Below are positions 128-29,096 of a stretch of DNA of 29,510 nt, piece by piece. This stretch comes from a virus: IMG/VR virus record IMGVR_UViG_3300025830_000002. One strand, 5' to 3'. The notes below the pieces were generated by a model. The model ran no database searches, was not told where the DNA came from, and saw only the letters and a program-made list of their open reading frames with translations. Position numbers and translations under genes: made by a program. Position 1 is the stretch's first letter; each line of letters begins with the position of its first letter.

Positions 128-229
128 TGCGCTTAACGTCTTTCGTTTACGCCTTGCTTTTTCTTTTAAAAGCTTCTTCTCTTCTTCTGTTACTCTTATT
201 GTAACTATGTCAGTCTTTCGTGTTTTCAT
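101..229 (-). CDS. Small ribbon-helix-helix (CopG/Arc/MobC-like) DNA-binding protein, 42 aa (not in ORF track)
   Basis: Hand translation gives MKTRKTDIVTIRVTEEEKKLLKEKARRKRKTLSAYIISKTID. The pattern is beta-strand (IVTIRVT), helix (EEEKKLLKEKA), then helix (TLSAYII), typical of RHH. It overlaps the exo 3' end by 20 nt and stops 3 nt before the SSB-like ATG. Confidence 0.45.
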   Translation of the reverse strand: MKTRKTDIVTIRVTEEEKKLLKEKARRKRKTLSAYIISKTID

Positions 230-893
230 CTATTAAAGTTTTGTAATATTCTCTACATTCTTTTATCCTGTCGTAGATAGCTTTAACAACGTCTTTATCA
301 TATCTTACTTCAAACGTTTTGATTCGTTTTTCTGTTGGTATATGATCAAAATTGTGTTTGGCTTCTACATCTGATCGCAGTTCTTCTGATTCATCTATTA
401 AATGATTCTTCCAATGTTCACGCCTTACTTCGTCTTCAACGATTTCATCTGGTGTGTTTACTAAACAATATGCAAGAACACTTTTACGTTTGTTACATAA
501 AGCCATATAGCCTTGAAGCTGATAATAGTAATCTTTGTTTGGTATATCTTCAGCAAAGAATGGAAACGTTGTTGCATCATAACTACTTTTTACATCTAAA
601 AGTATACTATCCGTGTTTACGTCTGGAGTGCCTGTTAAAAAACCATTGTTAAAATGTTCTTCGTTTTTATACATCAATCCAAAATCTAATACTTCTTGTG
701 CTAATGAAATACTTTCATCTTCTACAAGGTTGCCTTTGTCTGTGTAACGGCTTGAAAATTCTTTCTTGATTCCGTACATTTCTTCTATTGCCAACTCCTG
801 TAAGTAGGTCTTGCAAGTCTTACTCAATACTTCGGACTTGCTTCTGCTATTGGTCATTATTTTGCCAAGTGCTGAACATCTAATCTTCAACAT
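210..893 (-). CDS. YqaJ/lambda-Exo-type recombination exonuclease (PD-(D/E)XK)
   Basis: 227-aa ORF with motifs ...LTGTPD... and ...LLDVKS... (D...D/E-x-K) plus ...YYYQLQGYM..., characteristic of YqaJ-like viral recombinase exonucleases. It is adjacent to and overlaps the ERF annealase gene. Confidence 0.8.
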   Translation of the reverse strand: MLKIRCSALGKIMTNSRSKSEVLSKTCKTYLQELAIEEMYGIKKEFSSRYTDKGNLVEDESISLAQEVLDFGLMYKNEEHFNNGFLTGTPDVNTDSILLDVKSSYDATTFPFFAEDIPNKDYYYQLQGYMALCNKRKSVLAYCLVNTPDEIVEDEVRREHWKNHLIDESEELRSDVEAKHNFDHIPTEKRIKTFEVRYDKDVVKAIYDRIKECREYYKTLIDENTKD

Positions 894-1447
894 AACTCAA
901 GTGCTTTAACTTGTAAAGGCGATAAATCAAACTCTTCTAACTTGGCTTTGTTTATTTTGCCATCTTGTAAAGCTTTCAATGCGTCTTCAAATCGTTTTTT
1001 AGTTAGCTTCTCTTTCTTTACTTCGTTTTTATTATGCGTATTTGTTGTGTCTGCGTCTTTCGTATCGTCTATTAAAAACAATCCGTTAAGTGCGTACTTT
1101 CTTGCATAACTTGAACTGCTTCCAAATGCTTGTGCGATATCCATTCCTTTTCTATTTGGATCAATTCCTGCTTGTGCTTTTACTGCCTGCATCTTTGTTC
1201 CATCTGTAATCATAGCAGTTGATTCTACATACATATAGCCTGCTGCTTCTTTTACTTCGTCAGTTAGATTTAGTGCCAATCCGTTTAATAGTGGCTTAAC
1301 GGCTTCAAGTATATCTTCACAACTCCTGTACTTGTAGTTTCCAAACTTGTTAAATTGATTCTTTGGTGCTTTTAATTCTTGCTGGATTTTGGCCAGTCTT
1401 CCAATTACTGTGTCTTTCATAACATTATTTATTTTTTGTTTATACAA
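887..1447 (-). CDS. erf: ERF-family single-strand annealing protein
   Basis: 186-aa ORF. The N-terminal segment ...LKAPKNQFNKFGNYKYRSCEDILEAVKPLL... is the hallmark of P22 Erf-like recombinases, and it is paired with an exonuclease. Confidence 0.8.
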   Translation of the reverse strand: MYKQKINNVMKDTVIGRLAKIQQELKAPKNQFNKFGNYKYRSCEDILEAVKPLLNGLALNLTDEVKEAAGYMYVESTAMITDGTKMQAVKAQAGIDPNRKGMDIAQAFGSSSSYARKYALNGLFLIDDTKDADTTNTHNKNEVKKEKLTKKRFEDALKALQDGKINKAKLEEFDLSPLQVKALELC

Positions 1448-1456
1448 ATATAAGTA

Positions 1457-1978
1457 TTATTTATTTAATTCTTTCTTTTTTTGTTTATACATTTCAATAA
1501 TCGCTTTCAATTCTTCTCTTGTATACTTTCTTATCTTGTGTGCTTCTTCGTGTAATTTTATTAGTTCTTCGCCACCTATTCGTTTTTCTATACCTATTTG
1601 GTAGTTTAGTAGGTTTCCGTGTTTGTGTTGGTTACAGGCTACGCATTGACCGTGAACATTATTTTCATCGAAAGTTACGTTCTTGTGGCTTGTACTAAAG
1701 TAGTGACCAGCATCGAATTTACTTCCTAATAGCTTTTCGCAACTTACACAAGGTTTATGCTTATCACGTTCACGAATGTATGCATTAAAGTATACCTGTG
1801 CTTTTTTAGTTAAGCTTTGCACCGTTTCTAATTCGTCTTTTAGTCGCTTCTTTTCTTTCTTCCAGTTCTTTACTTTTGCGGTTTCTACCCATACCTTGAC
1901 ACAATCACTTTTAAAGCAGTACTTCTGATTGAAGTGTTTTACTTCAAACTTTTCTTTGCAGTTTTTACAACGTGGCAT
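1457..1978 (-). CDS. ninG: NinG/Rap-like recombination endonuclease
   Basis: 173 aa with Cys/His clusters CKNC..., PCVSC...DAGH..., HGQCVACNQHKHGN, typical of the lambda NinG (Rap) family. It lies in the recombination module. Confidence 0.75.
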   Translation of the reverse strand: MPRCKNCKEKFEVKHFNQKYCFKSDCVKVWVETAKVKNWKKEKKRLKDELETVQSLTKKAQVYFNAYIRERDKHKPCVSCEKLLGSKFDAGHYFSTSHKNVTFDENNVHGQCVACNQHKHGNLLNYQIGIEKRIGGEELIKLHEEAHKIRKYTREELKAIIEMYKQKKKELNK

Positions 1979-3077
1979 TTAAATTAAATTCTTTTATTAT
2001 TAATTCTAAACAACGTACTACAATACTATTTCCAGCTTGTTTGTATGCTTGACTATCTGAACAAATCCAAGTAAAAGTATCTGGAAAATCCATAAGTCTA
2101 AAACATTCTCTTGGTGTTAATCTTCTTATGTTTTGATTTTCTAAAGTTGCTTGATTGCATTGCGTGTCTAAAGTTTGTGCTACACCTTTACCAACTCTTC
2201 CTCTCCGTGTTTCTGAATTAGGAACACTAAAGTTTATACTATCGCCTTCATTAGCTTTTTCATAACCTTTTTTAGTTGCTGATTTTATTTGTATTGTATT
2301 ATCAGTAGGACACAAAGCTGCATTTGCCCTTAACGTGTTAGCCGTATCATTTTCGTTTTTTGGTTGCCATTTAAATCCTGTTTGTTTTTCTTCGTGTCTT
2401 TCTTTGTGTTTCAAAAAACCGTTTATAATTGTGTGACTTAAAAAATACTTTTCATCTACTTCGTTTTCAAGTACGTCTTTTAGTCGTTTAGTTAAATGCT
2501 CTTCTTTTGCCCATCTAAACGTATTATCTTGATCATCACGAACACCAATTATAAAAACTCTTTCTCTATTTTGTGGAACTCCGTGTTTTTTTGCGTTCAT
2601 TACTTTGTAGTAAATGTGATATGGAACTGAATTTTTATAAGGAAACAATACAGGCAAACCATTTACACTTTTTCCACCTAACATATTTATCCACTCTTTA
2701 AAAGTATTGCCATTATCGTCTGATAATAAACCCTTGACATTTTCAAATATAAAGTATTTTGGTTTGTTCGTTTTTATGAACTCGTGACTATTAAAAAACA
2801 ACACCCCTCTTTTATCGTCTTTGCCTAATCTTTTTCCAGCTAAACTAAAAGCTTGACAAGGAGGAGAAGTCATATAAATATCTAAACTTTCCTTTGGTAT
2901 TTCTCTTTCATATACATCTTTTGGATAATACTTTGGTTCTCCGTAATTATGTATAAATGTTTCTCTTGCATACTTGTCCATATCACAAGCAAAAACCTCA
3001 TCGTATTCTATGCCTAATCTTATTAACGCTTGATTAAATGCACCTACTCCACTAAAATCACTTCCTACCTTTATCAT
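1965..3077 (-). CDS. DNA (cytosine-5)-methyltransferase
   Basis: All canonical C5-MTase motifs are present in order: I DFSGVGAF, IV SPPCQAFS, VI ENVKGL, VIII QNRERVFIIG, IX RRLTPRECFRLMDFPD, X AGNSIVV. Confidence 0.93.
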   Translation of the reverse strand: MIKVGSDFSGVGAFNQALIRLGIEYDEVFACDMDKYARETFIHNYGEPKYYPKDVYEREIPKESLDIYMTSPPCQAFSLAGKRLGKDDKRGVLFFNSHEFIKTNKPKYFIFENVKGLLSDDNGNTFKEWINMLGGKSVNGLPVLFPYKNSVPYHIYYKVMNAKKHGVPQNRERVFIIGVRDDQDNTFRWAKEEHLTKRLKDVLENEVDEKYFLSHTIINGFLKHKERHEEKQTGFKWQPKNENDTANTLRANAALCPTDNTIQIKSATKKGYEKANEGDSINFSVPNSETRRGRVGKGVAQTLDTQCNQATLENQNIRRLTPRECFRLMDFPDTFTWICSDSQAYKQAGNSIVVRCLELIIKEFNLNATL

Positions 3078-3367
3078 ATACCCTCTTTTAAGTTTTCTAC
3101 TAAAATGTTAAGCTTTTCTAATTCGTGTTTTTGTTCACTTATAACCATTTGCAAACGTAAATTACTTTTACATTCTAAAAGATATTGGTCTTCAAACTGC
3201 ATAAACACGGATTGAAAATAGCTGATGTCTTCAAGTGAATCAAGCATAGAATCAATTAAGTCTTTACGTTCTGGATGCTTTGCTTGTAACTCCTCTATAC
3301 TACTTGTGAACTTAATAATAGTTGTTTGTAGGTTTATCTTTGCTTTTAGTATTTCTAAAGTGTCCAT
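3074..3367 (-). CDS. Hypothetical protein (helical/coiled-coil, 97 aa)
   Basis: The ORF fills the gap with ATGA-type overlaps at both ends. I recognise no motif. Confidence 0.5.
   Translation of the reverse strand: MDTLEILKAKINLQTTIIKFTSSIEELQAKHPERKDLIDSMLDSLEDISYFQSVFMQFEDQYLLECKSNLRLQMVISEQKHELEKLNILVENLKEGI
3109..3132 (-). repeat. 24-nt element AAAAACACGAATTAGAAAAGCTTA (copy 1), containing the AAACACGAAT motif
   Basis: It matches 4350..4373 at 23 of 24 positions. It lies inside the 97-aa ORF, 32-55 nt upstream of the C5-MTase ATG (3077). Confidence 0.9.
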
Positions 3368-4272
3368 TATTCGTGTTTTGGTTGTGCGTAAATCTTATTG
3401 TAAACATTCGGCACAGGATTATCTTGTTCATAATATAGAAATTTTTCTTTATCAAACCATAATTCTAATTGGCCTATATTTCCAACTGAACGTGGCTTAA
3501 TCTTATTAAAGTTTATTATTGCTTGATTGTAGCTTAAATCTTCTCTGTGAACGGTAATCATACACTTGCCACTATTAAACCATTCAGAGCCACCTTTTAG
3601 ATCGTATGGGCTTGGCACGTTTCTTTTGCCGTTTATCTTTTCAGTTAGTTTAGGATGAATAATTGTATGTAAGTGTAGATTGTTATCTTCTGCTATTTGG
3701 TTTCTATAAGGAAGTATTACTTCTAAATATTGTGCATAACCTCCATACTCGTTATATGGATGGCTTAAATCTTTCCAACTATCAATACTTGCCGTTTGTA
3801 ATCCGTGTTTTTGTTTAAGTTCTACTGCATAATCATAAAATTCAAACGGTGTTAATTTGGCTTTAACATCATATTTGGTTAGTATTTTAAAGTGTTCAAA
3901 AATCCAATCTAAACTATTTGTTATCTCTTTGTCTTTAATCACGTTGTTATCTAATGGATTAAAACTTTTGCCTGTAAGCTTGTGAATTAAATCTGCAACT
4001 ATTTCAACATTACTACCTACATCTGGAAAGTAAACAAGATGTTTCCATCCGTAAAACTTACTTGTATTAAGTAGGCACTCCATCAATACCTGTGTTTTAC
4101 CACTCATAGGGAAACCTGTCCAATCTGTGCAGTTGCCTAATTGCATAGAATAGAACTCATCCATTCCTTTCCATCCTAAATACTTTCCTTTGTTGTTGTA
4201 ATTATCTCTATGCTTGTATATCTTGTTTAAAATATCTTTTGCTTCTGTTACCTTATAACCTTTCATTGCCAC
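3367..4272 (-). CDS. DnaB/T7-gp4-like (SF4) replicative helicase, ATPase domain only
   Basis: 301 aa with Walker [10 protein letters not shown], a Walker B-like ...[10 protein letters not shown]..., and ...[21 protein letters not shown]... resembling the DnaB H4/arginine-finger region (DLRESG...DAD.v..l.R). Confidence 0.6.
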
Positions 4273-4835
4273 GGTGCTTTAAATCCATTACTACTTTCTA
4301 CTTCTTTTTTTGTTTGTTCTTTCTTCAACCAATTTTTAGCAGTTAAATATAAGCTTTTATAATTCGTGTTTTTCTTGAAGTTTTGGATCGCATCGCATAC
4401 ACCATCAATTTGTTGTTTAGTATAATCTTTTTCTAATTTGTTAAATTCATCTAAAGACATAGACAAATGGGCGAAAGCCCTATATATATCTTTATCATTT
4501 ACATTATCATTAACATTAACATTTACGGCTATGTTTGCCATTTTCTTTTTAGCACTTTTAACAGGTGCTATATTCTGCCATCTTTTATTAGCACCTTTCT
4601 TTCCTGCTTCTCGTTTCTTTTCTCTTATCTGTTCGTATTTTTGTAGATCACGTTTTAAGTTTTGTTTGATCGGCTCAAAACATAAATCTGTTATAATGTC
4701 TTCGGTTTCTGGATTCAAGTCGTTGACGTACTCTAAAACGTGTTTAAATAGCTTTCCTGCCTGTTCATCATTTAACTTCTTGACCGTATGCAATAAGTCG
4801 CAATAAAGTAAAAAGCTTTTTTTATTTTCTGCCAT
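4263..4835 (-). CDS. Replication-associated protein (replisome-organiser / DUF6291-like N-terminus)
   Basis: 190 aa. The N-terminus ...[32 protein letters not shown]... resembles the phage replisome-organiser N-terminal family seen in Bacteroidota phages. It sits directly upstream of the helicase. The central [12 protein letters not shown] linker is encoded by a hexamer array. Confidence 0.45.
4350..4373 (-). repeat. 24-nt element AAAAACACGAATTATAAAAGCTTA (copy 2)
   Basis: It matches 3109..3132 at 23 of 24 positions but lies in a different reading frame (encodes KNTNYKSL here and QKHELEKL in copy 1). It is 78-101 nt upstream of the helicase ATG (4272). Confidence 0.9.
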
Positions 4836-4847
4836 AAATTATTGGTT

Positions 4848-4902
4848 AAAAAAAAAGTATAACGCTTTCAGTGGGTAGGAACACTTACTTACGCTATACT
4901 CT
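4848..4902 (-). terminator. Long hairpin followed by U9: terminator/attenuator-like element in the leader of the replication genes
   Basis: The minus-strand RNA reads GUAUAGCG...(26 nt)...CGUUAUAC followed by UUUUUUUUU, an 8-9 bp stem with one G-U pair. An inner 4-bp AGUG/CACU helix presents loop UUCCUACC. The run ends 12 nt before the ATG at 4835. Confidence 0.4.
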
Positions 4903-4930
4903 AAATATTTTGATTGTCCTACCAACTCCA

Positions 4931-4938: not shown

Positions 4939-4939
4939 A

Positions 4940-5305: not shown

Positions 5306-6474
5306 AATAAAGATTTTGCTATGTTATAAGTTTGTTCGTTTATTTCAGCAGCTAAAACTTTTCTTTTCTTTTCTTTGGCTGCTATTATAGTTGTACCACT
5401 TCCAGCAAACGGCTCTAAAATTGTATCCATTGGTTTAGTAAACATTTCAATTAAATAAGCTACGCCACTTTTACTTTGTTGCCAGTCGTGTCCGTTTTTT
5501 TCTCTTTGTTCTGAAATAAAATAATCTTGAAAAGTATTTTCTATTTTTTTCTTGCCATTTTGAAATATTAGTACAGGTTTCCATCTACACATTAAATTTA
5601 TTCCATTGACTATTTGCGTTTGTCCCTCGTGATAAACGGCAAACGTCCAATAATAATCTAAATTTTCACTCATTCTTTTCATTACTTCTGGCAAATACAT
5701 TTGTCCACTATATGCAATACAAAAACCATTTGGTTTTAATACACGTTTTGCAAACCTTGAAAGTTTAGTCCATACTTCTATAAATTCATAAGGATAAGGT
5801 GGATCTGTAATTATACAATCTATACTTCCATCTGGCAAGTCTGCAAAAACTTCTTGAAAATCTCCAAGTCTAAAGTCTATTTCTATTTCTTTTTTTGCGC
5901 CTTTTTCTGCTAACCTTTTACGTTCTGCTATTTTTTCTTCTTTCTTTTCTTCTTTCTTTATTTCTTTGTAAGCTGCGTTTATACTTACTTCTCCAGTTGC
6001 AAGTTTTGCTTTTACTTCTTCTGGTGCTTTCTCTTGTATTTTTTTTACTTTAGAAATAGTGTCTTTACCTACATTGGCAACATTTGACAACTTTTCAATA
6101 GTTTTACCCTGTTCTGATTTCGGAACAGGCTTAGCTTGTATCATTCTTTCCTTTGCTTTTTTGCTAAAAACTTCTTCAAGTTCTAAAGCCAAAACACTTC
6201 TTTGATAGTTGCTTAAATTACGTCTTCCAAATTGATTTAATATCATCCATTCTTTTACACTTTCTTCACTTGCAAAATGTTTGCTTGTAGTTCTATACTC
6301 TACATCAAATCGTTGTGCTATACTATAACGATTATGTCCATCTATTATAAATCCATTCCAAGTTATTATAGGCTCTCGTATTCCCTCTTCTAATATGTTT
6401 GCTTCAAGCTGCGCATATTCTTCAGCACTTAATGCTGGTATTAAATTCTTAAATTCTTCTTTTACTTGTATCAT
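5302..6474 (-). CDS. ParB-like N-terminal domain fused to an N6-adenine/N4-cytosine DNA methyltransferase (beta class)
   Basis: ParB/Srx-type motif ...IITWNGFIIDGHNRYSIA..., a K/E-rich linker, catalytic motif IV IITDPPYPY, then SAM motif I LEPFAGSGTT (order IV then I indicates beta class). Confidence 0.88.
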   Translation of the reverse strand: MIQVKEEFKNLIPALSAEEYAQLEANILEEGIREPIITWNGFIIDGHNRYSIAQRFDVEYRTTSKHFASEESVKEWMILNQFGRRNLSNYQRSVLALELEEVFSKKAKERMIQAKPVPKSEQGKTIEKLSNVANVGKDTISKVKKIQEKAPEEVKAKLATGEVSINAAYKEIKKEEKKEEKIAERKRLAEKGAKKEIEIDFRLGDFQEVFADLPDGSIDCIITDPPYPYEFIEVWTKLSRFAKRVLKPNGFCIAYSGQMYLPEVMKRMSENLDYYWTFAVYHEGQTQIVNGINLMCRWKPVLIFQNGKKKIENTFQDYFISEQREKNGHDWQQSKSGVAYLIEMFTKPMDTILEPFAGSGTTIIAAKEKKRKVLAAEINEQTYNIAKSLL

Positions 6475-6848
6475 ATCAATTCTTTATAAAGTTGTTTTTC
6501 TGTTCTTCCTTTTATTATTTGTAAATCTCTAATTGTTGTAGCTTTTAGAATATCCGTTTTTAAATCGTACTTTGTATCATTGATTTTAAACTTGCCATCG
6601 TATTCTGCAATATCCAAAAACATTAACGGATCTTTTGCTTTCTTTAAATTCTTAAAAGTTTTAATTCCGTGTACTATTGTGGCGTGATTTAATCCGAATA
6701 AATCGCCAATACTTTGATAAGTATATCCAGCAGTTCTTAAAACGTTAAAAAAGTATATTCTTTTGTGTACATATTTTCTTTGTCTACAACGTTTTTTTAA
6801 TTCGTCTTTTTCTATGTAGTGCAGTACACTACTCATCAATTCTTCCAT
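6471..6848 (-). CDS. DnaA domain-IV-like helix-turn-helix DNA-binding protein
   Basis: 125 aa. ...RKYVHKRIYFFNVLRTAGYTYQSIGDLFGLNHATIVHGIKTFKNL... parallels the DnaA C-terminal HTH (R..v..R.i.mYl.r......sl..IG..fg.dHsTV.h...k.). Confidence 0.55.
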   Translation of the reverse strand: MEELMSSVLHYIEKDELKKRCRQRKYVHKRIYFFNVLRTAGYTYQSIGDLFGLNHATIVHGIKTFKNLKKAKDPLMFLDIAEYDGKFKINDTKYDLKTDILKATTIRDLQIIKGRTEKQLYKELI

Positions 6849-6893
6849 ATATCCAATTTATAATAAGACAATAAAGATATTCAATTATTTTCT

Positions 6894-7133: not shown

Positions 7134-7396
7134 TTGTTTAGTATTTCTTCAAGTTCTTCGCACAAATCTTCTTCGTTATAATAGTTCACACCATCACATC
7201 TTAACGTTTCTTTCTGTACTCTATAATATGTTTCTTCTACTTGTGCGTATGATAGCTTGTCGTTAAAGCTATTGTAGCTATCAAGTTCTTCTATTATTCG
7301 TGTTTCTATAAAAAGTTCCACTTGATATGGTGTTTCGCCTATGTAAAATATTGCACCATCTTGATCGTAATATTCTATTTCTATTTCGTAACTCAT
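7121..7396 (-). CDS. Hypothetical acidic early protein, 91 aa
   Basis: The ORF is in the co-directional array. It shares an ATGA overlap with the upstream small ORF. Confidence 0.5.
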   Translation of the reverse strand: MSYEIEIEYYDQDGAIFYIGETPYQVELFIETRIIEELDSYNSFNDKLSYAQVEETYYRVQKETLRCDGVNYYNEEDLCEELEEILNKWNN

Positions 7397-7491
7397 ACTA
7401 ATAAATTTACTGCTAAATAATAAAACGTAAAGGCAACTGCCATAAACACGAATCCAAATAATAATTCTTTTTTTGCTTCTTTCTCTTTCAT
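7393..7491 (-). CDS. Small single-pass membrane protein, 32 aa (not in ORF track)
   Basis: Hand translation gives MKEKEAKKELLFGFVFMAVAFTFYYLAVNLLV. The charged N-terminus is followed by one hydrophobic helix. Its TGA overlaps the downstream ATG (ATGA), and it starts 7 nt after the upstream stop. Confidence 0.4.
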   Translation of the reverse strand: MKEKEAKKELLFGFVFMAVAFTFYYLAVNLLV

Positions 7492-7498
7492 AATCTAT

Positions 7499-9131: not shown

Positions 9132-9778
9132 TTTTCTAATTCTTTAATCATTTCAAAGTGAATCTTGGCTATCCTATTTCTTCCATCATTACTCATCAAT
9201 AGTCTACATTCAGCTTCGTTAGTCATAAAGAAGTTTTCTGATAATATCGCAGGCATAGCAGTATTTTTAAGAACATAAAAGTTTGCTTCTTTGTCTGCAT
9301 CTCCATCTCTTGTATCTTTTCGCATTGTGTGAGTAGGAAATTCTGCCTGTGCTTTGTTGAACAACACTTCTGCGATCTCATCGCTTTTTGTTTCTCCTAT
9401 ACTTGTGTAAACTTCCCATCCGTGTGCTGCTTCGTCACTAAAGCCGTTTGCGTGAATAGAAATATAGATACAAGGTTTATCCGTGTTTCTGTAAATTTCG
9501 TTTGCTTGTGATGTTCTGGTGCTTAAAGGAATATCTACATTTGTATCTACTAAATTAATGCAGTCAATATTTGCATCTTCGCAAAGCTTCATTAATCTGT
9601 CTACAATACTTCTGTTGAATTCGCCCTCAAAAAGTTGTGTGCCATCTGGCCAAATAGGACTTCGTTTTCCTGCCGTTTGATAAACACCATCTATAATACC
9701 ACCGTGTCCGTTATCAAATATGTATAAGTTTTTACTATCCAATTTAATTGGTTGTCTGCAACATTTACAAATCTTCAT
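9128..9778 (-). CDS. N-acetylmuramoyl-L-alanine amidase (Amidase_3 family) endolysin
   Basis: Motifs DNGHGG, ISIHANG, HGWEVY and FYVLKNTAMPAILSENFFMTN are typical of MurNAc-LAA zinc amidases. It is flanked by holin and spanin candidates. Confidence 0.88.
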   Translation of the reverse strand: MKICKCCRQPIKLDSKNLYIFDNGHGGIIDGVYQTAGKRSPIWPDGTQLFEGEFNRSIVDRLMKLCEDANIDCINLVDTNVDIPLSTRTSQANEIYRNTDKPCIYISIHANGFSDEAAHGWEVYTSIGETKSDEIAEVLFNKAQAEFPTHTMRKDTRDGDADKEANFYVLKNTAMPAILSENFFMTNEAECRLLMSNDGRNRIAKIHFEMIKELEK

Positions 9779-10241
9779 TTTTTTTGATGTTTTTAAAATC
9801 GCTTGTTACTTCCTTTGCTCTTGCAAATAAGTTTTTTAATGATGCCCACAAATCAATGCCTTTTACTGCCTTGTAGTTTTCATTGATAGAAATAACTTCA
9901 ATAGAAACAAGAACTAAAGCCAAGATTTTAGTAGTAAGTAATTCGATACTAAAAAACGAAATAACAATATCGTTTAATAGAAATTTATCCATAGCATAAA
10001 ACAACATAACGGTTGCTTCATAAAGTAAAATCTTTGATATGATTGCAGATAGTCTTCTGCTTGTAATTGGTTGTTTAAGTTTCTTTGCTTTCCAGATACC
10101 TGTAATTGTATCTAAAATAACAGAAGCTGCAATAAGAATAAGAATACCAACAATAGGTAAAAAAAACGAAAGAATAATAGCCATCAGTTTAGTTGAGTAA
10201 AGTTTAATTTTAGTTGTCAGTACATAGAGTTGTGTTTTCAT
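9765..10241 (-). CDS. Holin (multi-pass, Phage_holin_4-like)
   Basis: 158 aa with about four hydrophobic helices. ...LDTITGIWKAKKLKQPITSRRL... resembles the LL-H/holin_4 family motif. It overlaps the amidase start. Confidence 0.6.
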   Translation of the reverse strand: MKTQLYVLTTKIKLYSTKLMAIILSFFLPIVGILILIAASVILDTITGIWKAKKLKQPITSRRLSAIISKILLYEATVMLFYAMDKFLLNDIVISFFSIELLTTKILALVLVSIEVISINENYKAVKGIDLWASLKNLFARAKEVTSDFKNIKKNEDL

Positions 10242-10242
10242 C

Positions 10243-10655: not shown

Positions 10656-10677
10656 TTTATTTTATTTTAATTCGTTT

Positions 10678-17988: not shown

Positions 17989-18584
17989 TTCAATAGGTCT
18001 TTTAGTTTGTTTATTGTTTCCGTTTTTTTATCGTCTTTACTCATATCGTATCTGTCTGCAAAATAACCTTCAATACTAAATCCTTTTATTTCGCCAGACT
18101 TTGCTTTGTCGTATAGTTCTTGATCGTCTATCTTTGCCGATACCATCCAAGTGCCTACAGGTACATCTAAGCCATATAAAGCCGTTTTGTCTTTCTTGCT
18201 ATCTTCTACTATCCAACTTTCAACGATTGTAACGCCATCAATTTTATTTTCGTGTTCAAAGGTTGCGTTTTTATGATTCGATTTTTTAAAGAATAATTCA
18301 CTTGCCTGTCGTACCGTGTTTTTAGAAAAGTAAATATAGTATTCGTCGCCTTTGTCGTTTCTTCTGTAAATACTTTTATCTGGAATAAGTGCAGCACCCA
18401 TTAAAATTTTCTTTTCTGCGTTAATCTCTTTTAGATATAGTTCGTGTTTTTGTTTAGAAAGTGCGATGAAGTTGGATTCAATCGCAGGAGTTTCTACTAA
18501 AGAAATTGCGTCTATTCCACTTTGTTCATCGTTTGGATCAATTATAAGTTCTACGATTTTAAATGTTTTTGATTCACTGCTCAT
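17985..18584 (-). CDS. XkdF-like prohead protease-family protein
   Basis: 199 aa. ...IDAISLVETPAIESNF..., ...FEHENKIDGVTIVESWIV..., ...GEIKGFSIEG... parallels the PBSX XkdF (Peptidase_S78_2) family. It lies in the head module. Confidence 0.6.
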   Translation of the reverse strand: MSSESKTFKIVELIIDPNDEQSGIDAISLVETPAIESNFIALSKQKHELYLKEINAEKKILMGAALIPDKSIYRRNDKGDEYYIYFSKNTVRQASELFFKKSNHKNATFEHENKIDGVTIVESWIVEDSKKDKTALYGLDVPVGTWMVSAKIDDQELYDKAKSGEIKGFSIEGYFADRYDMSKDDKKTETINKLKDLLK

Positions 18585-21098: not shown

Positions 21099-21265
21099 TT
21101 GAGTGTGTCTTTATTTCGTGTTTTTAACAAGTTCATTCTTTTCTTTTGCTTATAAATTCCTTTCACTCCTGTTTCATAACTATATAATCCTTTCGCCACT
21201 TGTACATTGTAGCTGCCATTATAAAAATCGTCTATTGCTAATAAGTCTACTATGTTTTTAATCAT
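21077..21265 (-). CDS. Hypothetical protein, 62 aa
   Basis: It has a TAATG overlap with the upstream 803-aa gene and a 22-nt overlap with the tape-measure start. It contains an AAACACGAA motif 17 nt before the tape-measure ATG. Confidence 0.35.
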   Translation of the reverse strand: MIKNIVDLLAIDDFYNGSYNVQVAKGLYSYETGVKGIYKQKKRMNLLKTRNKDTLKWLKQEL

Positions 21266-23676
21266 TACGGTTGTTGTTGGATAAATATTTGGTTGCTTGT
21301 TTGTGTTCCGTTACTGAATGTATAAGTAACAACTAAAGTGTATAGTTCAATAGTTCCCTCTTCTGTTCTTACTCGTTTAGTATCTTCCGTGTTTATGTAG
21401 TCTATATCATCTTCAGTTTTTAGTACCGTTGTAGTATTTGGATTGTCTGGAATACATACTTGAATCGTACCCTCACTTGTTAAAGTGCTTGGCGTAATCG
21501 TTACACTTGGATTGCTACAAGTTATATCTGCTTGAACTACTCCGTTAGGAAATAAGATTCTAACGTCTAAACATTGTGATACATCACTTGGAATTAATGG
21601 CTCTGTTGGACCACCTCCACCGATAGCAATAACAGGTCTAAAATCATTTATCAAAACAAAATCTACATCGCCAGTATTGAGATTAGATTTCATTGATTCT
21701 ATAATGTATCTTTTATCTCTAATAATTAGCCTGTCATTCAAACGTAATTCAGTTAATAGGCTTACAGGTAGATTCGTTTTTATGGTTGTTCTTCTATTCT
21801 TTAAATTAAACAGATTAAGTAAATATCCAGAATAATATGTTTTAAAAAGTGTATTCTGTTCAGCTATGTTTGTTAAGGTGCTTATGTCTGCATTAAAATT
21901 AAGTGTGTAGTTTTCAGTCAATACTTTTACATCTTGTCCGAAAGGAACATACTCTGTTAAAGTGCTTGTACTTGTTTCATCTGTAAATCTATAATCTTGT
22001 GCTAATTCTTCGTACTCATAAATTATCATAGGTTTAGGAACGTACTTGTTTCCATCTTGATTTATTGTTTCGCCTATTTGTAGATTCGTGCCTTGAAACT
22101 TTTGCATCATCATATTTTCAAAAGGCAATTCTACTTTAAAAGCACCACCATCATAATCAAAAGTGTTCTTCGTGTTTCCATAGCCACGACCTGTAAGATT
22201 TTTAAATATTGTATTTGTAGCACTTTCACTTTCTTGGTAGTTAAATTCTATTGTTTTAAATAATTTAAGCCTGTCTATGTTTATGCTTTTTATATCCGTG
22301 TATTTCGTGATATCTACAACTGCGCCTTTCGCATACCAATCGTCTAACGGCTCAACTTGAAACACATTTTCTGCCGTTCCATAGCAAGTTAAATTAAACA
22401 TCTTTAGAACTCCTTTAAAGAAGTCGCTTACGGTCATATCTGGAACGTAGTTAACAACACTAAAATCATTATTTACACTTACTGCTCCTGTTCCATAATA
22501 TCTATTTATAGCCGTATCAATGCCACTACCTGTGTCAATATATGTAAGTTGCTGATAAGTAATTTTAAAAGTAACTGATAAAGCATTTTGAGCCCTAAAT
22601 CTAAAACTATAATTAGTGTTAGGTGTATTTACACTACTACCCTCAATAATTTGTGTTGTTCCAGGAGATTGTGCAGTTATTGTTTGAACTACTTGGTTAT
22701 TCAATATTACATCAATATAAAATATTGTTTGTGGTGTTGCTGGATTTACAGAATTAATTTCTAAAACAACACTATATAGAAATGCAGCTTGAAGACCAGG
22801 CGTTGCTCCTGGAAATGCTTCTGAAAATGATATTTGACCAAAGCTTAATGTATCTGTACCTAAATCAAAATAATCTAAATAAGTTTTAGTTGTATTATAA
22901 TTAATAATATCCGTACTTCCACTTGTTATATCCATTAATTTAGATTCAGTTACAAAAGTAAAATCTTCTGAATTTTTACAATACAAATAAGCATTACTAA
23001 ATCTTTTATCTCCAAAAAATGTTCCACTAAACGTAACTCCGTACCTCGTTTGTATTACGTTAATTAAAGAAAGTAGTTTAATAGCTGGAAATAATTCATT
23101 GTACAAAACACTTCCTGTTCCTGTTGTTCCTATGTCTGTGCTTCCACCTGTTCCATAAGTTATATCTCTATTAAAGATTAAAGGAAACCTAACACCATAA
23201 GTAATGCTTCCATTTGTTATTCTGTCTTGAACTGCTGCGCCATCATACGCAAAATTATAAAAATCAAGTTCAGACATATCAGCCAATTTATCGTCTTGAA
23301 ATTTATCCTTAAGTGCCAATATATCTCCGTAGAAAGTAATTTGATAACTATAAGGTTGGTTGTCTTTTACTTCTGATTTTTCTAAACTTATTTTTCCACG
23401 TCTAAATGTTGTTAAGTCTATTTCTATGTATGCATCTCTTCGGATGTTGTGGTCAAAGATTGTATTGATATCTTGTAAATCGCCAATATCACTATTATAG
23501 AAATGCTTAAATATTGCATCGTTTTTAATTGAACTCGGAACACTAAAGCTTTGTGAATAGTCAGTAAATACTTTGCTAATATCTTGGATATCTTGCTGCT
23601 TACTTGTAACGCTTATTATTTCGTCTTTAAATAAATCAAGTCTTTGCCCCTCTATGTATACTTGTACAGTTCTCAT
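21265..23676 (-). CDS. Large tail structural protein (candidate tail tip/baseplate or receptor-binding component)
   Basis: 803 aa, beta-rich and Thr/Asn/Ser-rich, in the tail cluster. No diagnostic motif, so the call rests on size and context. Confidence 0.45.
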   Translation of the reverse strand: MRTVQVYIEGQRLDLFKDEIISVTSKQQDIQDISKVFTDYSQSFSVPSSIKNDAIFKHFYNSDIGDLQDINTIFDHNIRRDAYIEIDLTTFRRGKISLEKSEVKDNQPYSYQITFYGDILALKDKFQDDKLADMSELDFYNFAYDGAAVQDRITNGSITYGVRFPLIFNRDITYGTGGSTDIGTTGTGSVLYNELFPAIKLLSLINVIQTRYGVTFSGTFFGDKRFSNAYLYCKNSEDFTFVTESKLMDITSGSTDIINYNTTKTYLDYFDLGTDTLSFGQISFSEAFPGATPGLQAAFLYSVVLEINSVNPATPQTIFYIDVILNNQVVQTITAQSPGTTQIIEGSSVNTPNTNYSFRFRAQNALSVTFKITYQQLTYIDTGSGIDTAINRYYGTGAVSVNNDFSVVNYVPDMTVSDFFKGVLKMFNLTCYGTAENVFQVEPLDDWYAKGAVVDITKYTDIKSINIDRLKLFKTIEFNYQESESATNTIFKNLTGRGYGNTKNTFDYDGGAFKVELPFENMMMQKFQGTNLQIGETINQDGNKYVPKPMIIYEYEELAQDYRFTDETSTSTLTEYVPFGQDVKVLTENYTLNFNADISTLTNIAEQNTLFKTYYSGYLLNLFNLKNRRTTIKTNLPVSLLTELRLNDRLIIRDKRYIIESMKSNLNTGDVDFVLINDFRPVIAIGGGGPTEPLIPSDVSQCLDVRILFPNGVVQADITCSNPSVTITPSTLTSEGTIQVCIPDNPNTTTVLKTEDDIDYINTEDTKRVRTEEGTIELYTLVVTYTFSNGTQTSNQIFIQQQP

Positions 23677-24767
23677 TAAACTACATTGTTAATTAAATCG
23701 TAAGCAAATTCAAACTCCATCTCATAGTTAATCATTCCATCGTTTATTCCTACTTGTTTTTGAAGTGATTTAGTTTTGGCTTTTACAGGAGTGTAGTTCG
23801 TGTTTACCTCGTAATCTAATAGAAGCACCTTCTCACTCAATAACATCTGTTGTATATAATCGCCATAGTCGTCGTTAACCCATCCTGTGTTTAGCTTAAT
23901 AGTTTCTTTTGCGTTTATGTTAAACTCTTTAAATTGACCATCGCCAGACAAGTTAGGATAGTAAGGTAATGCGCTTGGATTGAATTTGTATTCATTCGTT
24001 TTTACGTTGATACTTCTTTTCTTAACTTTTTGAAAGAATATTCTTGACCAACTTCCGTAACGATTAATAAAGTCCACAACTACTGGCTGATACTTTGGCT
24101 CACATTGTGGCTTAAAGTATGCAGTCCAACGTTCTGTTACGCCACCTATTAAGATTTCTACTTTGTTACCGTTTGGTGCATAAGTTAAGTATGCTCGTGC
24201 ATAGCTTTTTACTCCATCAGTAGTTGCCGTGTCTGTAAATGTTGCACCTGTTACTAAATCAGTATATTTCACAACATCTCCTATACTTAATTCACAATCA
24301 AAACTGCCCCATAATCCATTACCTTGTGTAGTTGGTATTGTAGCATCGTAGTTGTAAAAATAAGTACCCTCATCTAAAAGTGCTATTGGTGTTGTTGCGT
24401 TGTAGCCATCCATATAGTAGTTGTAGCCATCTACAAAAGTTCCTGTTTCTGTTGTATTTAATACATACGTTCCACCTATCAAGTTATAAGACTTTACTTT
24501 ATAGTTTACTAAGTAATTTGTACTTGTGTCGATGCCATACGTTAAACCTGTCGCACTTTGCCACACGTTAAAAGTGTAGTATTCTCTTACGTAAGGACTT
24601 ATATTGTAAAAAGTTTTAGTGTTGTTAGACGCAGGAATTAATTTAGATAGTGTGTATTGTGGATTTGCTAAAAAGCCAGGTGTATTCGCCAAAAATAATT
24701 CTATTTTGCTTCCTGTTTGTGTAGCATCGTCTACCTCTATTATGTATGGACTTCGTGATAATTTCAT
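23676..24767 (-). CDS. Tail structural protein (candidate distal tail protein)
   Basis: 363 aa, beta-rich, with a 1-nt overlap with the downstream 803-aa gene. The call rests on context only. Confidence 0.4.
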   Translation of the reverse strand: MKLSRSPYIIEVDDATQTGSKIELFLANTPGFLANPQYTLSKLIPASNNTKTFYNISPYVREYYTFNVWQSATGLTYGIDTSTNYLVNYKVKSYNLIGGTYVLNTTETGTFVDGYNYYMDGYNATTPIALLDEGTYFYNYDATIPTTQGNGLWGSFDCELSIGDVVKYTDLVTGATFTDTATTDGVKSYARAYLTYAPNGNKVEILIGGVTERWTAYFKPQCEPKYQPVVVDFINRYGSWSRIFFQKVKKRSINVKTNEYKFNPSALPYYPNLSGDGQFKEFNINAKETIKLNTGWVNDDYGDYIQQMLLSEKVLLLDYEVNTNYTPVKAKTKSLQKQVGINDGMINYEMEFEFAYDLINNVV

Positions 24768-26548: not shown

Positions 26549-26566
26549 TTTTCGTGTTTTTGTACT

Positions 26567-27727
26567 TTACAGAATATTATAACTTCCGTAATTCTTATTC
26601 ATTCCTAACGTTTCCATCTCGTGATAACGTACTGCATCTATTGCGTGATTGAAATTATCTACAGGTTTGTTTAAACGTTTTCCTGTCTTGTCTGTGTCCC
26701 AGCAATAACTCCTTAATTCTTTAATTAGGCTGGTGCTATTAGAAGTAACTAAATAGTTTTCACGTTGCATAACATCAATACCGTAGTTTATAGAGTCCCT
26801 GCCCTTTGTTACTCCTTTTATTGTTATGCCATACCGTTGTATATCTGCTATACTTTTTGGCTCTGCTGAATCTGCATAACACGGCACGTTGCTTGGAAGT
26901 ATTTTTGCTATGTCGCTATTTAATAATCCTGTTTGATAGGTTACTTCGTTTAGTATTCGTGTTTCGTTATGTTTGTACACTTCAATAATACTTGTAGGGT
27001 CGTTTGTATATCCAAAGTCAATTCCTATGCCTATCAATCTTGCTTCGTCTGGTATTGTATCAATCTGTTTCCAATTACTAAATACAACGCCCTCTAATTG
27101 CCCCATCTCGCCATCTACATAAACACGTACCCAGTTCTTCCAATAGTTGCTTGTAGCTGCTTTCTTTATGTTCTTTTCTATCTGGCTTATGATTCCGTTA
27201 TCAAGTGCTTCGTTGTCTTTGTAAGTAAGTATTATCTTTTCTGCATCTTCTTGGTCTTCTATTTCTGTTTGTACCCAAAATTCAGCAGTTGGATTGTAAT
27301 CAAGAAATACTTCGTTTTTTGTACGTATTGAAAGTTCGTTGTAAGATTCAAAGCTTACACTATTGCACTCGTTTATGTAAAGTATTGTACGTCTACCACC
27401 ACGAAGTTTACTTGAATCGTCTGCACTAAAAAATTCTATAAAACTGCCGTTTGCAAATTCGTATTTTAGTAGTGACTTGTTAAATCTGTCATCTACAAAC
27501 CTGTTGATAGATTTCATAATCTTTACAAAATCTCTTAAAGCACCTCTTCTCAAGTGTGGAATAGATTCAGATACAACGCTTATTTCTGTGTTAGGTGTTT
27601 TGGCTGCACGGTCTATTAAGATAGGAAGTATGCCGTATGTCTTTCCTGCTGATGTTCCACCTTGAACTATCTTAATCCGTTTTTTTAACGCAAGTATTTT
27701 ATTTATTGCCGTTGTTCTTTGAAACAT
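26567..27727 (-). CDS. terL: Terminase large subunit
   Basis: 386 aa with Walker A VQGGTSAGKTYG, a Walker B-like ...RTILYINE..., and a C-terminal RNaseH-like nuclease region (...GIGIDFGYTNDPT..., ...YADSAEP..., ...HAIDAVRY...). Confidence 0.88.
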   Translation of the reverse strand: MFQRTTAINKILALKKRIKIVQGGTSAGKTYGILPILIDRAAKTPNTEISVVSESIPHLRRGALRDFVKIMKSINRFVDDRFNKSLLKYEFANGSFIEFFSADDSSKLRGGRRTILYINECNSVSFESYNELSIRTKNEVFLDYNPTAEFWVQTEIEDQEDAEKIILTYKDNEALDNGIISQIEKNIKKAATSNYWKNWVRVYVDGEMGQLEGVVFSNWKQIDTIPDEARLIGIGIDFGYTNDPTSIIEVYKHNETRILNEVTYQTGLLNSDIAKILPSNVPCYADSAEPKSIADIQRYGITIKGVTKGRDSINYGIDVMQRENYLVTSNSTSLIKELRSYCWDTDKTGKRLNKPVDNFNHAIDAVRYHEMETLGMNKNYGSYNIL

Positions 27728-28130
27728 CTGGAAAAAGTGGTTGCTCTATATTCGTTTGTTCTATCTGTTCTTTTAGGCTATTTAATCGTGCAGTAATGCT
27801 TGGATTGTATTGGCCTACCATACCACCTTTGATTTGATCGTCGCGTATTTCTTTGCGTATACGTGTAGAGATAGTACAGAAATCTTCGTATCTCTTTTCT
27901 GTATTCTCTAAATAATGCTTTGCCGTGAAGTTAAATTTCTTGTGACAGTATAGTTCAAAGCCCTCTATTGTTAGTGGAACTTCTAATGGTTCTCCTACCA
28001 TATCTCCTGTTCTTTGGTTTAGGTGATATTTAAATCTTGGATTCGTTTTTGTGTAGGTTTTGTATGCGTCAAAAATGTCTTCTAATTCTTGTGCGTCTTT
28101 TAGTGATTTAGGTCTTCCTTTTTTTGCCAT
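27699..28130 (-). CDS. terS: Terminase small subunit
   Basis: 143 aa. MAKKGRPKS..., ...PLTIEGFELYC... and a C-terminal ...GGMVGQYNPSITARLNSLKE... resemble Terminase_2-type small subunits. It overlaps the terL start. Confidence 0.65.
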   Translation of the reverse strand: MAKKGRPKSLKDAQELEDIFDAYKTYTKTNPRFKYHLNQRTGDMVGEPLEVPLTIEGFELYCHKKFNFTAKHYLENTEKRYEDFCTISTRIRKEIRDDQIKGGMVGQYNPSITARLNSLKEQIEQTNIEQPLFPDVSKNNGNK

Positions 28131-28134
28131 CTTA

Positions 28135-28566
28135 TTAATCTTCGTAAGTTTCGTATACTTTTTTAATTCTGTTGTTTATATCTCTTAAACAACTTGCACA
28201 CGTTGTATATTGTTGTTTAGTTCTGAATACTCTATTGTAAATTACTAATAAATCACGTTGTTCACTTGGCTTCATTCTATTGCTATCTTTTGAAAACCAT
28301 TCTTTTAAATATTCGTATTCGTCTTTTTGTAGGCACTCGGCTTTAAATCTTCTTGGAAATAATGCGTTTAATTTTTCTTTACGTTCTTCACATCCACAGT
28401 CATCTCCTGCCAACCATTTAATAGCTTTCTTTATTCCTGTCGCTTCTGTTACCTTTTCGATAACGTCGCCTAAACCCTCAACAGGTTGCTGCTTCTTCCA
28501 GTCTTTGTATTCTTTAGATCGTTTATCTAATCCTAAATAATATTCTTCGTTTTTTTCCATAATCAA
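28135..28566 (-). CDS. Hypothetical Cys-containing protein, 143 aa
   Basis: Contains ...GLGDVIEKVTEATGIKKAIKWLAGDDCGCEERKEKLNALFP... and ...CASC.... I cannot assign a family. Confidence 0.5.
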   Translation of the reverse strand: MIMEKNEEYYLGLDKRSKEYKDWKKQQPVEGLGDVIEKVTEATGIKKAIKWLAGDDCGCEERKEKLNALFPRRFKAECLQKDEYEYLKEWFSKDSNRMKPSEQRDLLVIYNRVFRTKQQYTTCASCLRDINNRIKKVYETYED

Positions 28567-29096
28567 ATTAATTCGTAATCTTCGTTTTTATAGTCTTCGT
28601 AATCTTCATTCAGATTTTCTTTTAGTTTTCCTTTGCAGTATTTTATTGTTTGAAATATACTACTTGTACTTATTCGTGTTTCATCAGCAAGTTCACGCAT
28701 TGACATACCACTATCAAAATAGTGTTTAAATAACATCTCATCGTACCAATGCCACGTTTCTGCTTCTTCTTTTACTCGTTTAATTAAACCACTAAAGGCT
28801 TCTTCTTTTGAAATATAATCATAAGTTACGCCAATATCTTTACGTTCTTCTATATTAACCATCTGGTGCTTGTTTCGTTCCTTTGTCAAATCTTTAAATA
28901 TGTTTCTTAAAGTAAAGTGTATGTATGCACGGTTAAGTGTTCCGTTTTTTTGTATAACCTTTTCCCTGTCTGCATACTTGTGTAATCTTATGTACATTTC
29001 TTGAACTATATCTTCTGCGTAGAAGTCTTCTCCGTAGCTTTGTACGATTCTTAAATAGTCAGCGTGAAATTTAGCAACTTCTTTTAACCAGTTCAT
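28563..29096 (-). CDS. Sigma-70 family (ECF-like, regions 2 and 4 only) RNA polymerase sigma factor candidate
   Basis: 177 aa. ...AEDIVQEMYIRLHKY...NRAYIHFTLRNIFKDLTK... is region-2-like. The C-terminal HTH ...MSMRELADETRISTSSIFQTIKYCKGKLKENL is region-4.2-like. Confidence 0.55.
   Translation of the reverse strand: MNWLKEVAKFHADYLRIVQSYGEDFYAEDIVQEMYIRLHKYADREKVIQKNGTLNRAYIHFTLRNIFKDLTKERNKHQMVNIEERKDIGVTYDYISKEEAFSGLIKRVKEEAETWHWYDEMLFKHYFDSGMSMRELADETRISTSSIFQTIKYCKGKLKENLNEDYEDYKNEDYELI

Follow-up and report, generated by a model that had tools for sequence, protein, structure and literature searches.

What reads a 9-bp word that recurs throughout the genome of an uncultured phage, almost always on the same strand? 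The window analyzed here, the 29,510 nucleotides (nt) of IMG/VR virus record IMGVR_UViG_3300025830_000002, carries on its coding strand the over-represented word AAACACGAA, which an earlier note on this DNA had described as a genome-wide, strand-specific, and frame-independent motif. We found that about 50 copies per genome of a somewhat broader form, AAA[C/A]ACG[A/G]A (AAAMACGRA), are kept by selection, that the strand bias is largely compositional, and that the word is specific to this phage family. We propose that this form, often with AC at positions -4/-3, is a recognition box on duplex DNA. The explanation that we favor, at a probability of roughly 0.5 and on the basis of sequence comparisons and a structural model, is that the copies are dispersed DnaA-box-like sites read by the phage's own DnaA domain IV-like protein, encoded at 6471-6848.

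The ends of the window, 1-127 and 29384-29510, are identical (a 127-nt assembly overlap), and the sequence is therefore that of a whole circular (or circularly permuted) genome, with a complete length of 29,383 bp. The minus strand carries all 40 substantial open reading frames (ORFs), 95% of the sequence is coding, and the coding strand consists of A (40%), T (27%), G (19%), and C (14%). No tRNA gene was found.

On the plus strand, where the word reads TTCGTGTTT, we counted 17 copies, as compared to 1 on the minus strand (shuffle mean, 1.05; maximum, 4). The 16 sites of the earlier note are all real, and one, at 19549, had been overlooked. Its count of at least 25 AAACACG cores against 2 in the opposite orientation was slightly understated, since CGTGTTT occurs 30:3 with 5.8 expected. 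Extension to AAACACGAAT is found at 10 sites and not at 11; the six AAACACGGA sites exist but belong to a total of nine, with extra copies at 610, 1616, and 2204; and the three other sites with the core are joined by a fourth at 4739. We also found E-T-R-I encoded by GAA ACA CGA ATA at the four sites claimed (28673, 26956, 8885, and 7297) and six copies at most 45 nt upstream of start codons, and the codon CGA, which had been called uncommon, is moderately so (37 CGA versus 192 AGA codons).

The true motif is broader than this exact word, and AAAMACGRA has 51 coding-strand copies versus 4 in the opposite orientation. In a single-substitution scan, positions 1 to 3 (AAA), 5 to 7 (ACG), and 9 (A) were strict, with changes there abolishing the excess, and position 4 accepted C or A and position 8 A or G. 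In the flank, C is present at -3 in about half of the sites and A is favored at -4; besides these two and the nine motif positions, no informative positions, and hence no second block, were found from -45 to +50. The motif does occur in all reading frames and in intergenic DNA, as had been stated (AAAMACGRA copies in frames 0, 1, and 2 number 16, 9, and 21, respectively, with 5 more between genes). The variants with G or T at position 4, AAAGACGAA and AAATACGAA, are found in this genome only in frame 0, as K-D-E and K-Y-E, and are protein-driven. The variant AAAGACGA[A/T] was rejected as a form of the motif, since in several clades it is largely in frame 0 (K-D-E) and so mostly protein-driven. 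A literature search for the word returned only primers.

The word is far more frequent than chance predicts, as the earlier note had estimated, and this holds under codon-aware nulls. The 17 copies of AAACACGAA compare with 1.7 under a third-order Markov model, 5.3 (maximum, 9) in a synonymous shuffle, and 3.8 (maximum, 7) in a codon-order shuffle, the latter two values containing 3 to 4 intergenic copies left unshuffled; for AAAMACGRA, 51 copies compare with 16.4 and 9.0 under the synonymous and codon-order nulls, respectively. An artifact of CpG context was considered and rejected: CpG is at 0.95 of expectation, and the motif holds only 51 of the 744 CpGs. Spacing of AAACACGAA is more even than random (coefficient of variation [CV] of 0.55 versus 0.93, P = 0.007; smallest gap, 248 nt), and pairs of AAACACGRA at most 30 nt apart are missing from about 1 Mb of family DNA, where we estimate that about 19 would be expected. 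The density of AAAMACGRA is about 1.7 per kb overall (46 of the 51 sites being intragenic), with 2.4 per kb in the early genes, 3.1 in the sigma-like/terminase region, and 1.2 in the structural genes.

Other DNA of similar kind lacks this excess. Phage Fpv8, with the same composition and one-strand genes, has AAAMACGRA 9:3 in 42.7 kb, which does not exceed the nulls for that genome. A set of 80 unrelated AT-rich RecT (pro)phages, 1.3 Mb in total, contained AAACACGAA 17 times over both strands, i.e., at 0.013 per kb versus 0.58 here, about 45 times more rarely. No excess was seen in the flavobacterial genome loci L111, L112, and L115 (0 to 1 AAAMACGRA per 20 kb) or in sampled Flavobacteriaceae, Weeksellaceae, or Myroides DNA, the host itself not being among the DNA sampled. 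A mildly enriched locus, L114 (3 sites versus 0.5 expected), was set aside as an unrelated RecT prophage with 80 relatives that have no excess. The word is specific to this phage family, which is known from metagenomes: there is no close cultured phage and megablast gave no match, TerL is 56% identical to TerL of Flavobacterium psychrophilum phages, the same genome is present in many ENA metagenome assemblies (contigs of 29.5 to 30 kb), and more than 590 TerL relatives are found in IMG/VR. One family member, L110 (1 of 7 loci from one genome-contig scan), is binned in a Flavobacteriaceae metagenome-assembled genome, which is a weak hint at the host.

The strand specificity, which the earlier note had taken as a property of the signal, is not supported as such. 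We took nine divergent genomes that carry the motif, compared the observed counts in 162 kb of their coding DNA with two codon-aware nulls, and obtained the following.

AAACACGAA, forward: observed 84; synonymous null 18.8; codon-order null 4.7; 4.5-18x
AAACACGAA, reverse (TTCGTGTTT on the coding strand): observed 13; synonymous null 1.05; codon-order null 0.15; 12-85x
AAAMACGRA, forward: observed 220; synonymous null 51.5; codon-order null 22.9; 4.3-9.6x
AAAMACGRA, reverse: observed 27; synonymous null 2.95; codon-order null 1.03; 9-26x

Reverse copies are thus at least as enriched over the nulls as forward copies, and the nulls produce a higher strand ratio (17-31:1, depending on word and shuffle) than the one observed (6.5-8:1). 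In the genome itself, the four reverse copies exceed the maximum of 500 synonymous shuffles and equal that of the codon-order shuffles. The strand bias is largely compositional, because the A-rich word fits A-rich codons (AAA, AAC, ACG, and GAA) and its T-rich form needs rare contexts. Since both orientations are enriched, the word is selected in both, which points to recognition of duplex DNA and argues against Chi-like, KOPS-like (FtsK-orienting polar sequence), RNA-level, and lagging-strand ideas, all of which predict a single orientation. Opposite-strand gene blocks were found in no relative, so gene flips cannot separate transcription polarity from replication polarity.

The motif is conserved in relatives and remains dense across 859 kb of their DNA (forward:reverse, 516:42 for AAACACGAA and 1234:73 for AAAMACGRA). 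In a comparison with 35 relatives that share 72-78% nucleotide identity, conservation was 82-95% at the nine positions, about 74% in the flanks, and 69% at position 4; the footprint comprises exactly nine positions with position 4 free, and relatives without the motif show no 9-bp footprint. Third codon positions are 81% conserved within the motif versus 57% outside it, which, together with the codon-aware nulls, bears out the claim that selection acts on the nucleotides and not on the protein. Forward sites are kept in 58% of cases (exact, 47%) and reverse sites in 33% (exact, 20%), versus 12.9% for control 9-mers. Some sites are nearly invariant (27676, 28673, 26551, and 217), and others are lineage-specific gains. 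In the horizontally acquired C5-methyltransferase gene, sites arose by synonymous, near-synonymous, or conservative changes with respect to bacterial homologues. The sites are as follows, with the relatives that keep them where counted.

28673..28681, minus strand: AAACACGAA, frame 1 (ETRI), kept in 26/27
26956..26964, minus strand: AAACACGAA, frame 1, within TerL, kept in 29/35
26551..26559, minus strand: AAACACGAA, intergenic, 26 nt ahead of a start codon, kept in 32/34
23797..23805, minus strand: AAACACGAA
22169..22177, minus strand: AAACACGAA, lineage-specific gain, kept in 0/25
21115..21123, minus strand: AAACACGAA, 25 nt ahead of the tape-measure gene start
19549..19557, minus strand: AAACACGAA, absent from the earlier list
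18441..18449, minus strand: AAACACGAA
17431..17439, minus strand: AAACACGAA, intergenic, 23 nt ahead of a start codon
15107..15115, minus strand: AAACACGAA, intergenic, 10 nt past the terminator at 15126-15153
11480..11488, minus strand: AAACACGAA
8885..8893, minus strand: AAACACGAA, frame 1 (ETRI)
7297..7305, minus strand: AAACACGAA, frame 1 (ETRI)
4363..4371, minus strand: AAACACGAA
3370..3378, minus strand: AAACACGAA, across a gene junction
3122..3130, minus strand: AAACACGAA, kept in 11/14
217..225, minus strand: AAACACGAA, 3' end of the exonuclease gene, kept in 19/19
21386..21394, minus strand: AAACACGGA
12648..12656, minus strand: AAACACGGA
12328..12336, minus strand: AAACACGGA
9480..9488, minus strand: AAACACGGA
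3802..3810, minus strand: AAACACGGA
2580..2588, minus strand: AAACACGGA, within the C5-methyltransferase gene
2204..2212, minus strand: AAACACGGA via a rare CGG codon (AGA or CGT in bacterial homologues)
1616..1624, minus strand: AAACACGGA
610..618, minus strand: AAACACGGA
42..50 = 29425..29433, minus strand: AAAAACGGA, one site, doubled by the assembly overlap
28941..28949, minus strand: AAAAACGGA
28581..28589, minus strand: AAAAACGAA
28546..28554, minus strand: AAAAACGAA
28042..28050, minus strand: AAAAACGAA
27676..27684, minus strand: AAAAACGGA, TerL 5' region, rare CGG codon (3 in the genome), kept in 35/35
27311..27319, minus strand: AAAAACGAA
25812..25820, minus strand: AAAAACGAA
23995..24003, minus strand: AAAAACGAA
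21773..21781, minus strand: AAAAACGAA, kept in 21/23
18019..18027, minus strand: AAAAACGGA
17750..17758, minus strand: AAAAACGGA
16923..16931, minus strand: AAAAACGGA
14839..14847, minus strand: AAAAACGGA
13447..13455, minus strand: AAAAACGGA
10671..10679, minus strand: AAAAACGAA, intergenic, 24 nt ahead of a start codon
6553..6561, minus strand: AAAAACGGA, within the DnaA_C-like gene
5491..5499, minus strand: AAAAACGGA
2767..2775, minus strand: AAAAACGAA, methyltransferase gene, K-T-N versus K-K-N in homologues
2352..2360, minus strand: AAAAACGAA
1579..1587, minus strand: AAAAACGAA, kept in 14/15
1022..1030, minus strand: AAAAACGAA
660..668, minus strand: AAAAACGAA
323..331, minus strand: AAAAACGAA, kept in 17/17
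3203..3211, plus strand: reverse copy, AAACACGGA, kept in 12/22
7444..7452, plus strand: reverse copy, AAACACGAA, intergenic, kept in 3/4
9952..9960, plus strand: reverse copy, AAAAACGAA
10162..10170, plus strand: reverse copy, AAAAACGAA

Which protein, then, might read such boxes? Domain IV of DnaA binds as a monomer to asymmetric 9-bp boxes, placing an arginine in the minor groove of the AT-rich end and a helix-turn-helix (HTH) in the major groove. By analogy, the architecture of the phage box (9 bp, of which three form an AT-rich triplet, one is free, and five make up a specific block) would fit reading by a domain of this type. The genome encodes one candidate, which stands among the following genes in transcription order.

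28563-29096, minus strand: sigma-like or late-activator-like protein gene, first in transcription order
28135-28566, minus strand: conserved Zn-finger protein gene, after the sigma-like gene
Minus strand: TerS (P22 gp3-like), then TerL, after the Zn-finger gene
Minus strand: head, tail, and lysis genes, then the early block with small ORFs, after TerL
6471..6848, minus strand: gene for a 125-amino-acid DnaA domain IV-like HTH protein, the proposed motif reader
Minus strand: ParB-methyltransferase, VRR-NUC-like protein, DUF6291/DnaD-like organizer, and helicase, in this order, after the DnaA domain IV-like gene
Minus strand: C5 methyltransferase, NinG, Erf, and exonuclease, last in transcription order

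The 6471-6848 protein matches Pfam Bac_DnaA_C (PF08299) with an E value of 7e-7, slightly below the gathering score. The best PDB sequence match of its family profile is 1J1V (E value, 0.0035), domain IV of E. coli DnaA in complex with a DnaA box, and the top folds for its AF2 model (pLDDT, 81) are the DnaA DNA-binding domains 3PVP and 1J1V (probability, 0.90-0.98; TM of about 0.6 on the target; weak E values). It consists of an N-terminal domain IV-like segment of 80 residues and a 45-residue tail, with no AAA+ module. Base-specific contacts in DnaA are made by residues 399, 423, 432-435, and 438-439 (PMC5043019). When the protein is aligned to 1J1V, R399 corresponds to R22 and H434 to H55, neither of which varies within the family, and D433 corresponds to residue 54.

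Protein and motif covary across lineages, with exceptions, at two levels. (i) All motif-rich loci spanning the region have the DnaA-like gene, and it is missing at the syntenic spot in the L079 clade (0 to 0.3 sites per kb) and the L071 clade (0.4 to 0.9 per kb), where the flanking genes abut directly; 18 of 18 further loci agree. (ii) When 21 helix types plus L269 were compared, residue 54 was N or D in 15 types, from genomes with 0.34 to 1.5 AAACACGRA per kb, and H or G in six types from different clades (L061, L069, L101, L239, L247, and L075/L248), with 0 to 0.43 per kb. In the H/G-type genomes, orthologous sites have decayed mainly at C6 and G7, e.g., to AAACATGAA or AAACACAAA. No replacement word emerged in these lineages; AACACTTA, tried as such for L239, was rejected, as it is also common in motif-rich clades, where it is part of a start-proximal cassette. 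The DnaA-like gene is the only one that shows both presence/absence and residue-level covariation with the motif: most motif-rich relatives lack the genes for both methyltransferases, the VRR-NUC protein, and the helicase, and the sigma-like, Zn-finger, TerS, NinG, and exonuclease genes are present in motif-less genomes. The idea that the motif is a methyltransferase target was rejected on the same distribution of the two methyltransferase genes. Searches for cultured relatives of the sigma-like and DnaA-like proteins returned only a 39-amino-acid fragment in MW202711, without a comparable motif, and wider protein and locus searches gave matches from this phage family only.

Several observations weigh against this assignment. 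L269, which is motif-poor, and L236-238, with only 0.4 sites per kb, all retain N at residue 54, and the L013 allele, which is 51% identical and has W at the H439 equivalent, with D at residue 54, goes together with a retained motif. As L013/L014 are otherwise 87-90% identical to this genome, this allele shows a replacement by recombination within the family. The L071 clade, without the gene, still has its 0.4 to 0.9 sites per kb, all forward, and some of these sites lie in genes that this clade recently shared with motif-rich phages. Conservation is lower for reverse than for forward sites (33% versus 58% kept), and the sites may have some orientation preference. There is no tight origin-like box cluster and no iteron cluster in the genome. 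Canonical DnaA boxes, TTATNCACA, are not in excess (2 observed versus 2 expected), and the phage box shares with them only the length, the AT-rich end, and a few positions. Finally, the link between gene and motif is a correlation across lineages that are only partly independent.

Under the DnaA-like explanation, the 125-residue early protein would bind boxes in either orientation, orientation not being essential, and the boxes would load or concentrate an initiator-like protein all along phage DNA and not along host DNA. The gene heads the replication module, with the DUF6291 DnaD-like organizer and then the helicase; in relatives without the methyltransferase insert, it lies directly upstream of these two genes. 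In phage replication modules, such a position is that of the origin-binding initiator. From this place at the head of the module, the simplest guess is a distributed replisome-recruitment tag or a replication-coupled regulatory sink. It is conceivable, although doubtful, that the stripped-down DnaA and its roughly 50 boxes form a self-DNA tag of one of these two kinds. As a distributed origin, the protein coating phage DNA would nucleate the adjacent DnaD-like organizer and helicase at many places; as a titration sink, 50 more sites per genome copy would couple the early-to-late switch to replication.

Further elements were noted around these genes. In L048, L060, L068, L249, L260, and L266, AACACTTA clusters around the DnaA_C-like gene, with three forward copies upstream and two reverse copies 15 bp apart just downstream, and this set could be operator- or iteron-like, distinct from the main motif. 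The spacer before the DUF6291 organizer gene is conserved (4836-4939, minus strand; 2560-2670 in L048) and contains a T-run, a box TATATTTG that resembles the Bacteroidetes -7 element, and an inverted repeat GGTAGGACA...TGTTCCTACC in which the box TAAGTGTT is present once or twice; this spacer might be an origin element or else a promoter together with a leader or attenuator. The spacer that heads the early block (7718-7839, minus strand) has two copies each of TTGTAACTT and TGTTAATAA as well as a TATATTTG box immediately ahead of the 7717 gene; it is probably the host-type early promoter and operator region.

Among the alternatives, a duplex site for another protein, e.g., another phage protein such as the Zn-finger protein (28135-28566) or a host protein that binds or modifies DNA, is possible, if unlikely; the correlation with the DnaA-like gene would then be a phylogenetic coincidence. 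Enrichment in both orientations and site-level selection require only a duplex reader, whichever it is, the clades of the sigma-like protein also track motif preference, and L269 and L013 fit the DnaA-like model imperfectly. The distribution of genes argues the other way: the sigma-like, Zn-finger, and TerS genes are also present in motif-less clades, the methyltransferases, VRR-NUC protein, and helicase are missing from most motif-rich relatives, and no other gene covaries by both presence and residue.

We regard as improbable a Chi-like or polar signal for a host translocase or nuclease such as AddAB, which would protect rolling-circle tails or orient a motor, even though the 51:4 orientation counts, the roughly even spacing of one site per 0.6 to 1.7 kb, and the peak density upstream of the terminase genes would suit it. 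The Chi sequence of Bacteroidetes AddAB is not known (PMC2887965), and motif variants differ among clades, as host switches might yield. However, the excess is not confined to one orientation as a polar signal predicts, and the strand ratio, which is smaller than composition alone would give, takes away the basis for the replication- or packaging-polar sequence suggested in the earlier note. In addition, the motif varies together with a residue of a phage protein at a base-contact position, and there is no excess in the sampled flavobacterial-type DNA, which does not include the host itself, or in the 80 unrelated Bacteroidetes-type phages.

The phage-specific promoter reading fits poorly, and we consider it very improbable that the sites are promoters or -10-like elements at which host RNA polymerase is redirected by the sigma-like protein (28563-29096). 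Starts do lie close to many sites: 6 of the 17 exact copies are at most 53 nt from the next start (7% expected) and 11 of 17 at most 181 nt (25% expected), five sites are located 23-26 nt ahead of an ATG, and one follows the strong intrinsic terminator at 15126-15153 (minus strand; 12-bp stem and T-run, after the gene at 15179-15751), the only convincing terminator within 1-20000. The late promoters of T4 also consist of a single 8-bp block. This lean of sites to gene 3' ends and spacers is simply where an A-rich box is cheapest to place. About 51 selected sites outnumber the 40 genes, a second block is missing from -45 to +50, the early genes have twice the density of the structural genes (2.4 versus 1.2 per kb), the best-conserved sites lie deep in TerL and other genes, 400-1150 nt from the next start, and reverse copies are enriched as well. 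The sigma-like gene is kept by motif-less clades, and its place just before terS fits a late activator acting at a single promoter.

We give slightly less credit still to an RNA-level signal for processing, stability, or translation, or a lagging-strand primase or primosome site, since the reverse copies show enrichment and some conservation, sites of cleavage or binding far inside coding regions would carry a cost, and the genome has no primase gene and no Rfam match; one-strand genes do make any mRNA signal look strand-specific, and sites are enriched near gene 3' ends and upstream of starts. A functionless by-product of codon usage, amino acid composition, or CpG context, which might be suspected from the 40% A of the coding strand, the favored ACG and CGA contexts with 67% of the CpGs after A, and the confinement of AAAGACGAA and AAATACGAA to frame 0, is already refuted by the 4- to 18-fold excess over codon-aware nulls, the undepleted CpG, the phages of the same composition without the word, and the sharp 9-bp footprint that includes synonymous sites and is missing in motif-less relatives.

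The word can be set beside several known systems. (i) Like the DnaA boxes TTATNCACA, the phage box is an asymmetric 9-mer, AT-rich at one end, in which a specific block is combined with a single unconstrained position near the center, and a basic-loop arginine and an HTH read the former and are predicted to read the latter; the R399 and H434 equivalents are invariant in the phage protein, and a further likeness is that bacterial DnaA boxes are scattered over the chromosome and bound in either orientation. The differences are the word itself (AAAMACGRA), a protein with domain IV and a tail but no AAA+ module, and boxes that are individually conserved, mostly intragenic, at about 1.7 per kb, and in no origin-like cluster. 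(ii) Uptake signal sequences and DNA uptake sequences (USS/DUS) of Pasteurellaceae and Neisseriaceae are 9- to 12-bp words at about 1 per kb, in coding DNA and several frames and more evenly spaced than random, that tag self-DNA for a receptor. The phage word resembles them in its hyper-abundance (45x unrelated phages), even spacing (CV of 0.55 versus 0.93), and own-DNA specificity, but those are transformation tags of bacterial chromosomes and this one is on a phage genome with no competence-type genes among its ORFs. (iii) Chi sites of RecBCD/AddAB are likewise short over-represented oligomers, mostly in one orientation in many phages and chromosomes; Chi acts in one orientation only and is a host-genome motif, whereas the phage word is enriched both ways and lacking in the sampled bacterial DNA. 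(iv) In the stoperators of Cluster A mycobacteriophages, bound by monomeric repressors of the L5 gp71 type, variants co-evolve with the protein (PMC9283540; see also PMC6550527). Both systems have many asymmetric genome-wide sites, mostly co-oriented with transcription, for a phage monomeric HTH protein, a predicted one in the present case; this co-orientation is confounded here by the one-strand genes, and the reverse copies are enriched but less conserved. Stoperators are orientation-dependent 13-mers of temperate phages, with 20-35 copies per 50 kb that mostly occupy short gaps between genes, whereas the sites here are mostly intragenic, three times denser, and equally enriched in reverse. 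A stoperator-like roadblock role (PMC9283540) is less likely, because reverse copies are enriched and no lysogeny genes are evident (no integrase, CI-like repressor, or partition system among the 40 ORFs).

Other words in this genome are also unevenly represented. The palindrome CATG is absent from the whole genome versus 86 expected, which suggests strong avoidance of an NlaIII-type restriction site; L239, L248, and L069 do contain it. TGAGGGT occurs 7:0 on the coding strand versus 0.84 expected (as ACCCTCA on the plus strand at 11661, 13095, 19938, 21469, 22639, 24366, and 28474), and the related G-rich words GAAGAGGG and TGAGGGTA are one-sided too (5:0 each). A second over-represented 9-mer, AGAACGTAA, occurs 7:0 versus 0.47 expected (minus strand; 1675, 3264, 5918, 12417, 15442, 28379, and 28840) and is dense mainly in this strain, most relatives having 1 or 2 copies. 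In L239, at 4630-5245, a repeated cassette TTAATTAAACACTTAAAAAAATG stands directly ahead of four consecutive small genes and resembles the start-associated sequences of Cluster K mycobacteriophages.

The analysis carries a caution for other genomes transcribed from one strand, in which the strand bias of an A-rich word may be wholly compositional, so that the reverse orientation needs a codon-aware null before any polar mechanism is invoked. Hyper-abundant short words (Chi, USS/DUS, KOPS, HIP1, and stoperators) have each revealed a mechanism. An abundant group of uncultured marine phages carries such a word, with a named candidate reader and one candidate specificity residue, and a single protein with a few oligonucleotides would suffice to test the hypothesis. 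If true, either version of the self-DNA tag, distributed origin or titration sink, would represent a previously undescribed way in which a phage genome is recognized.

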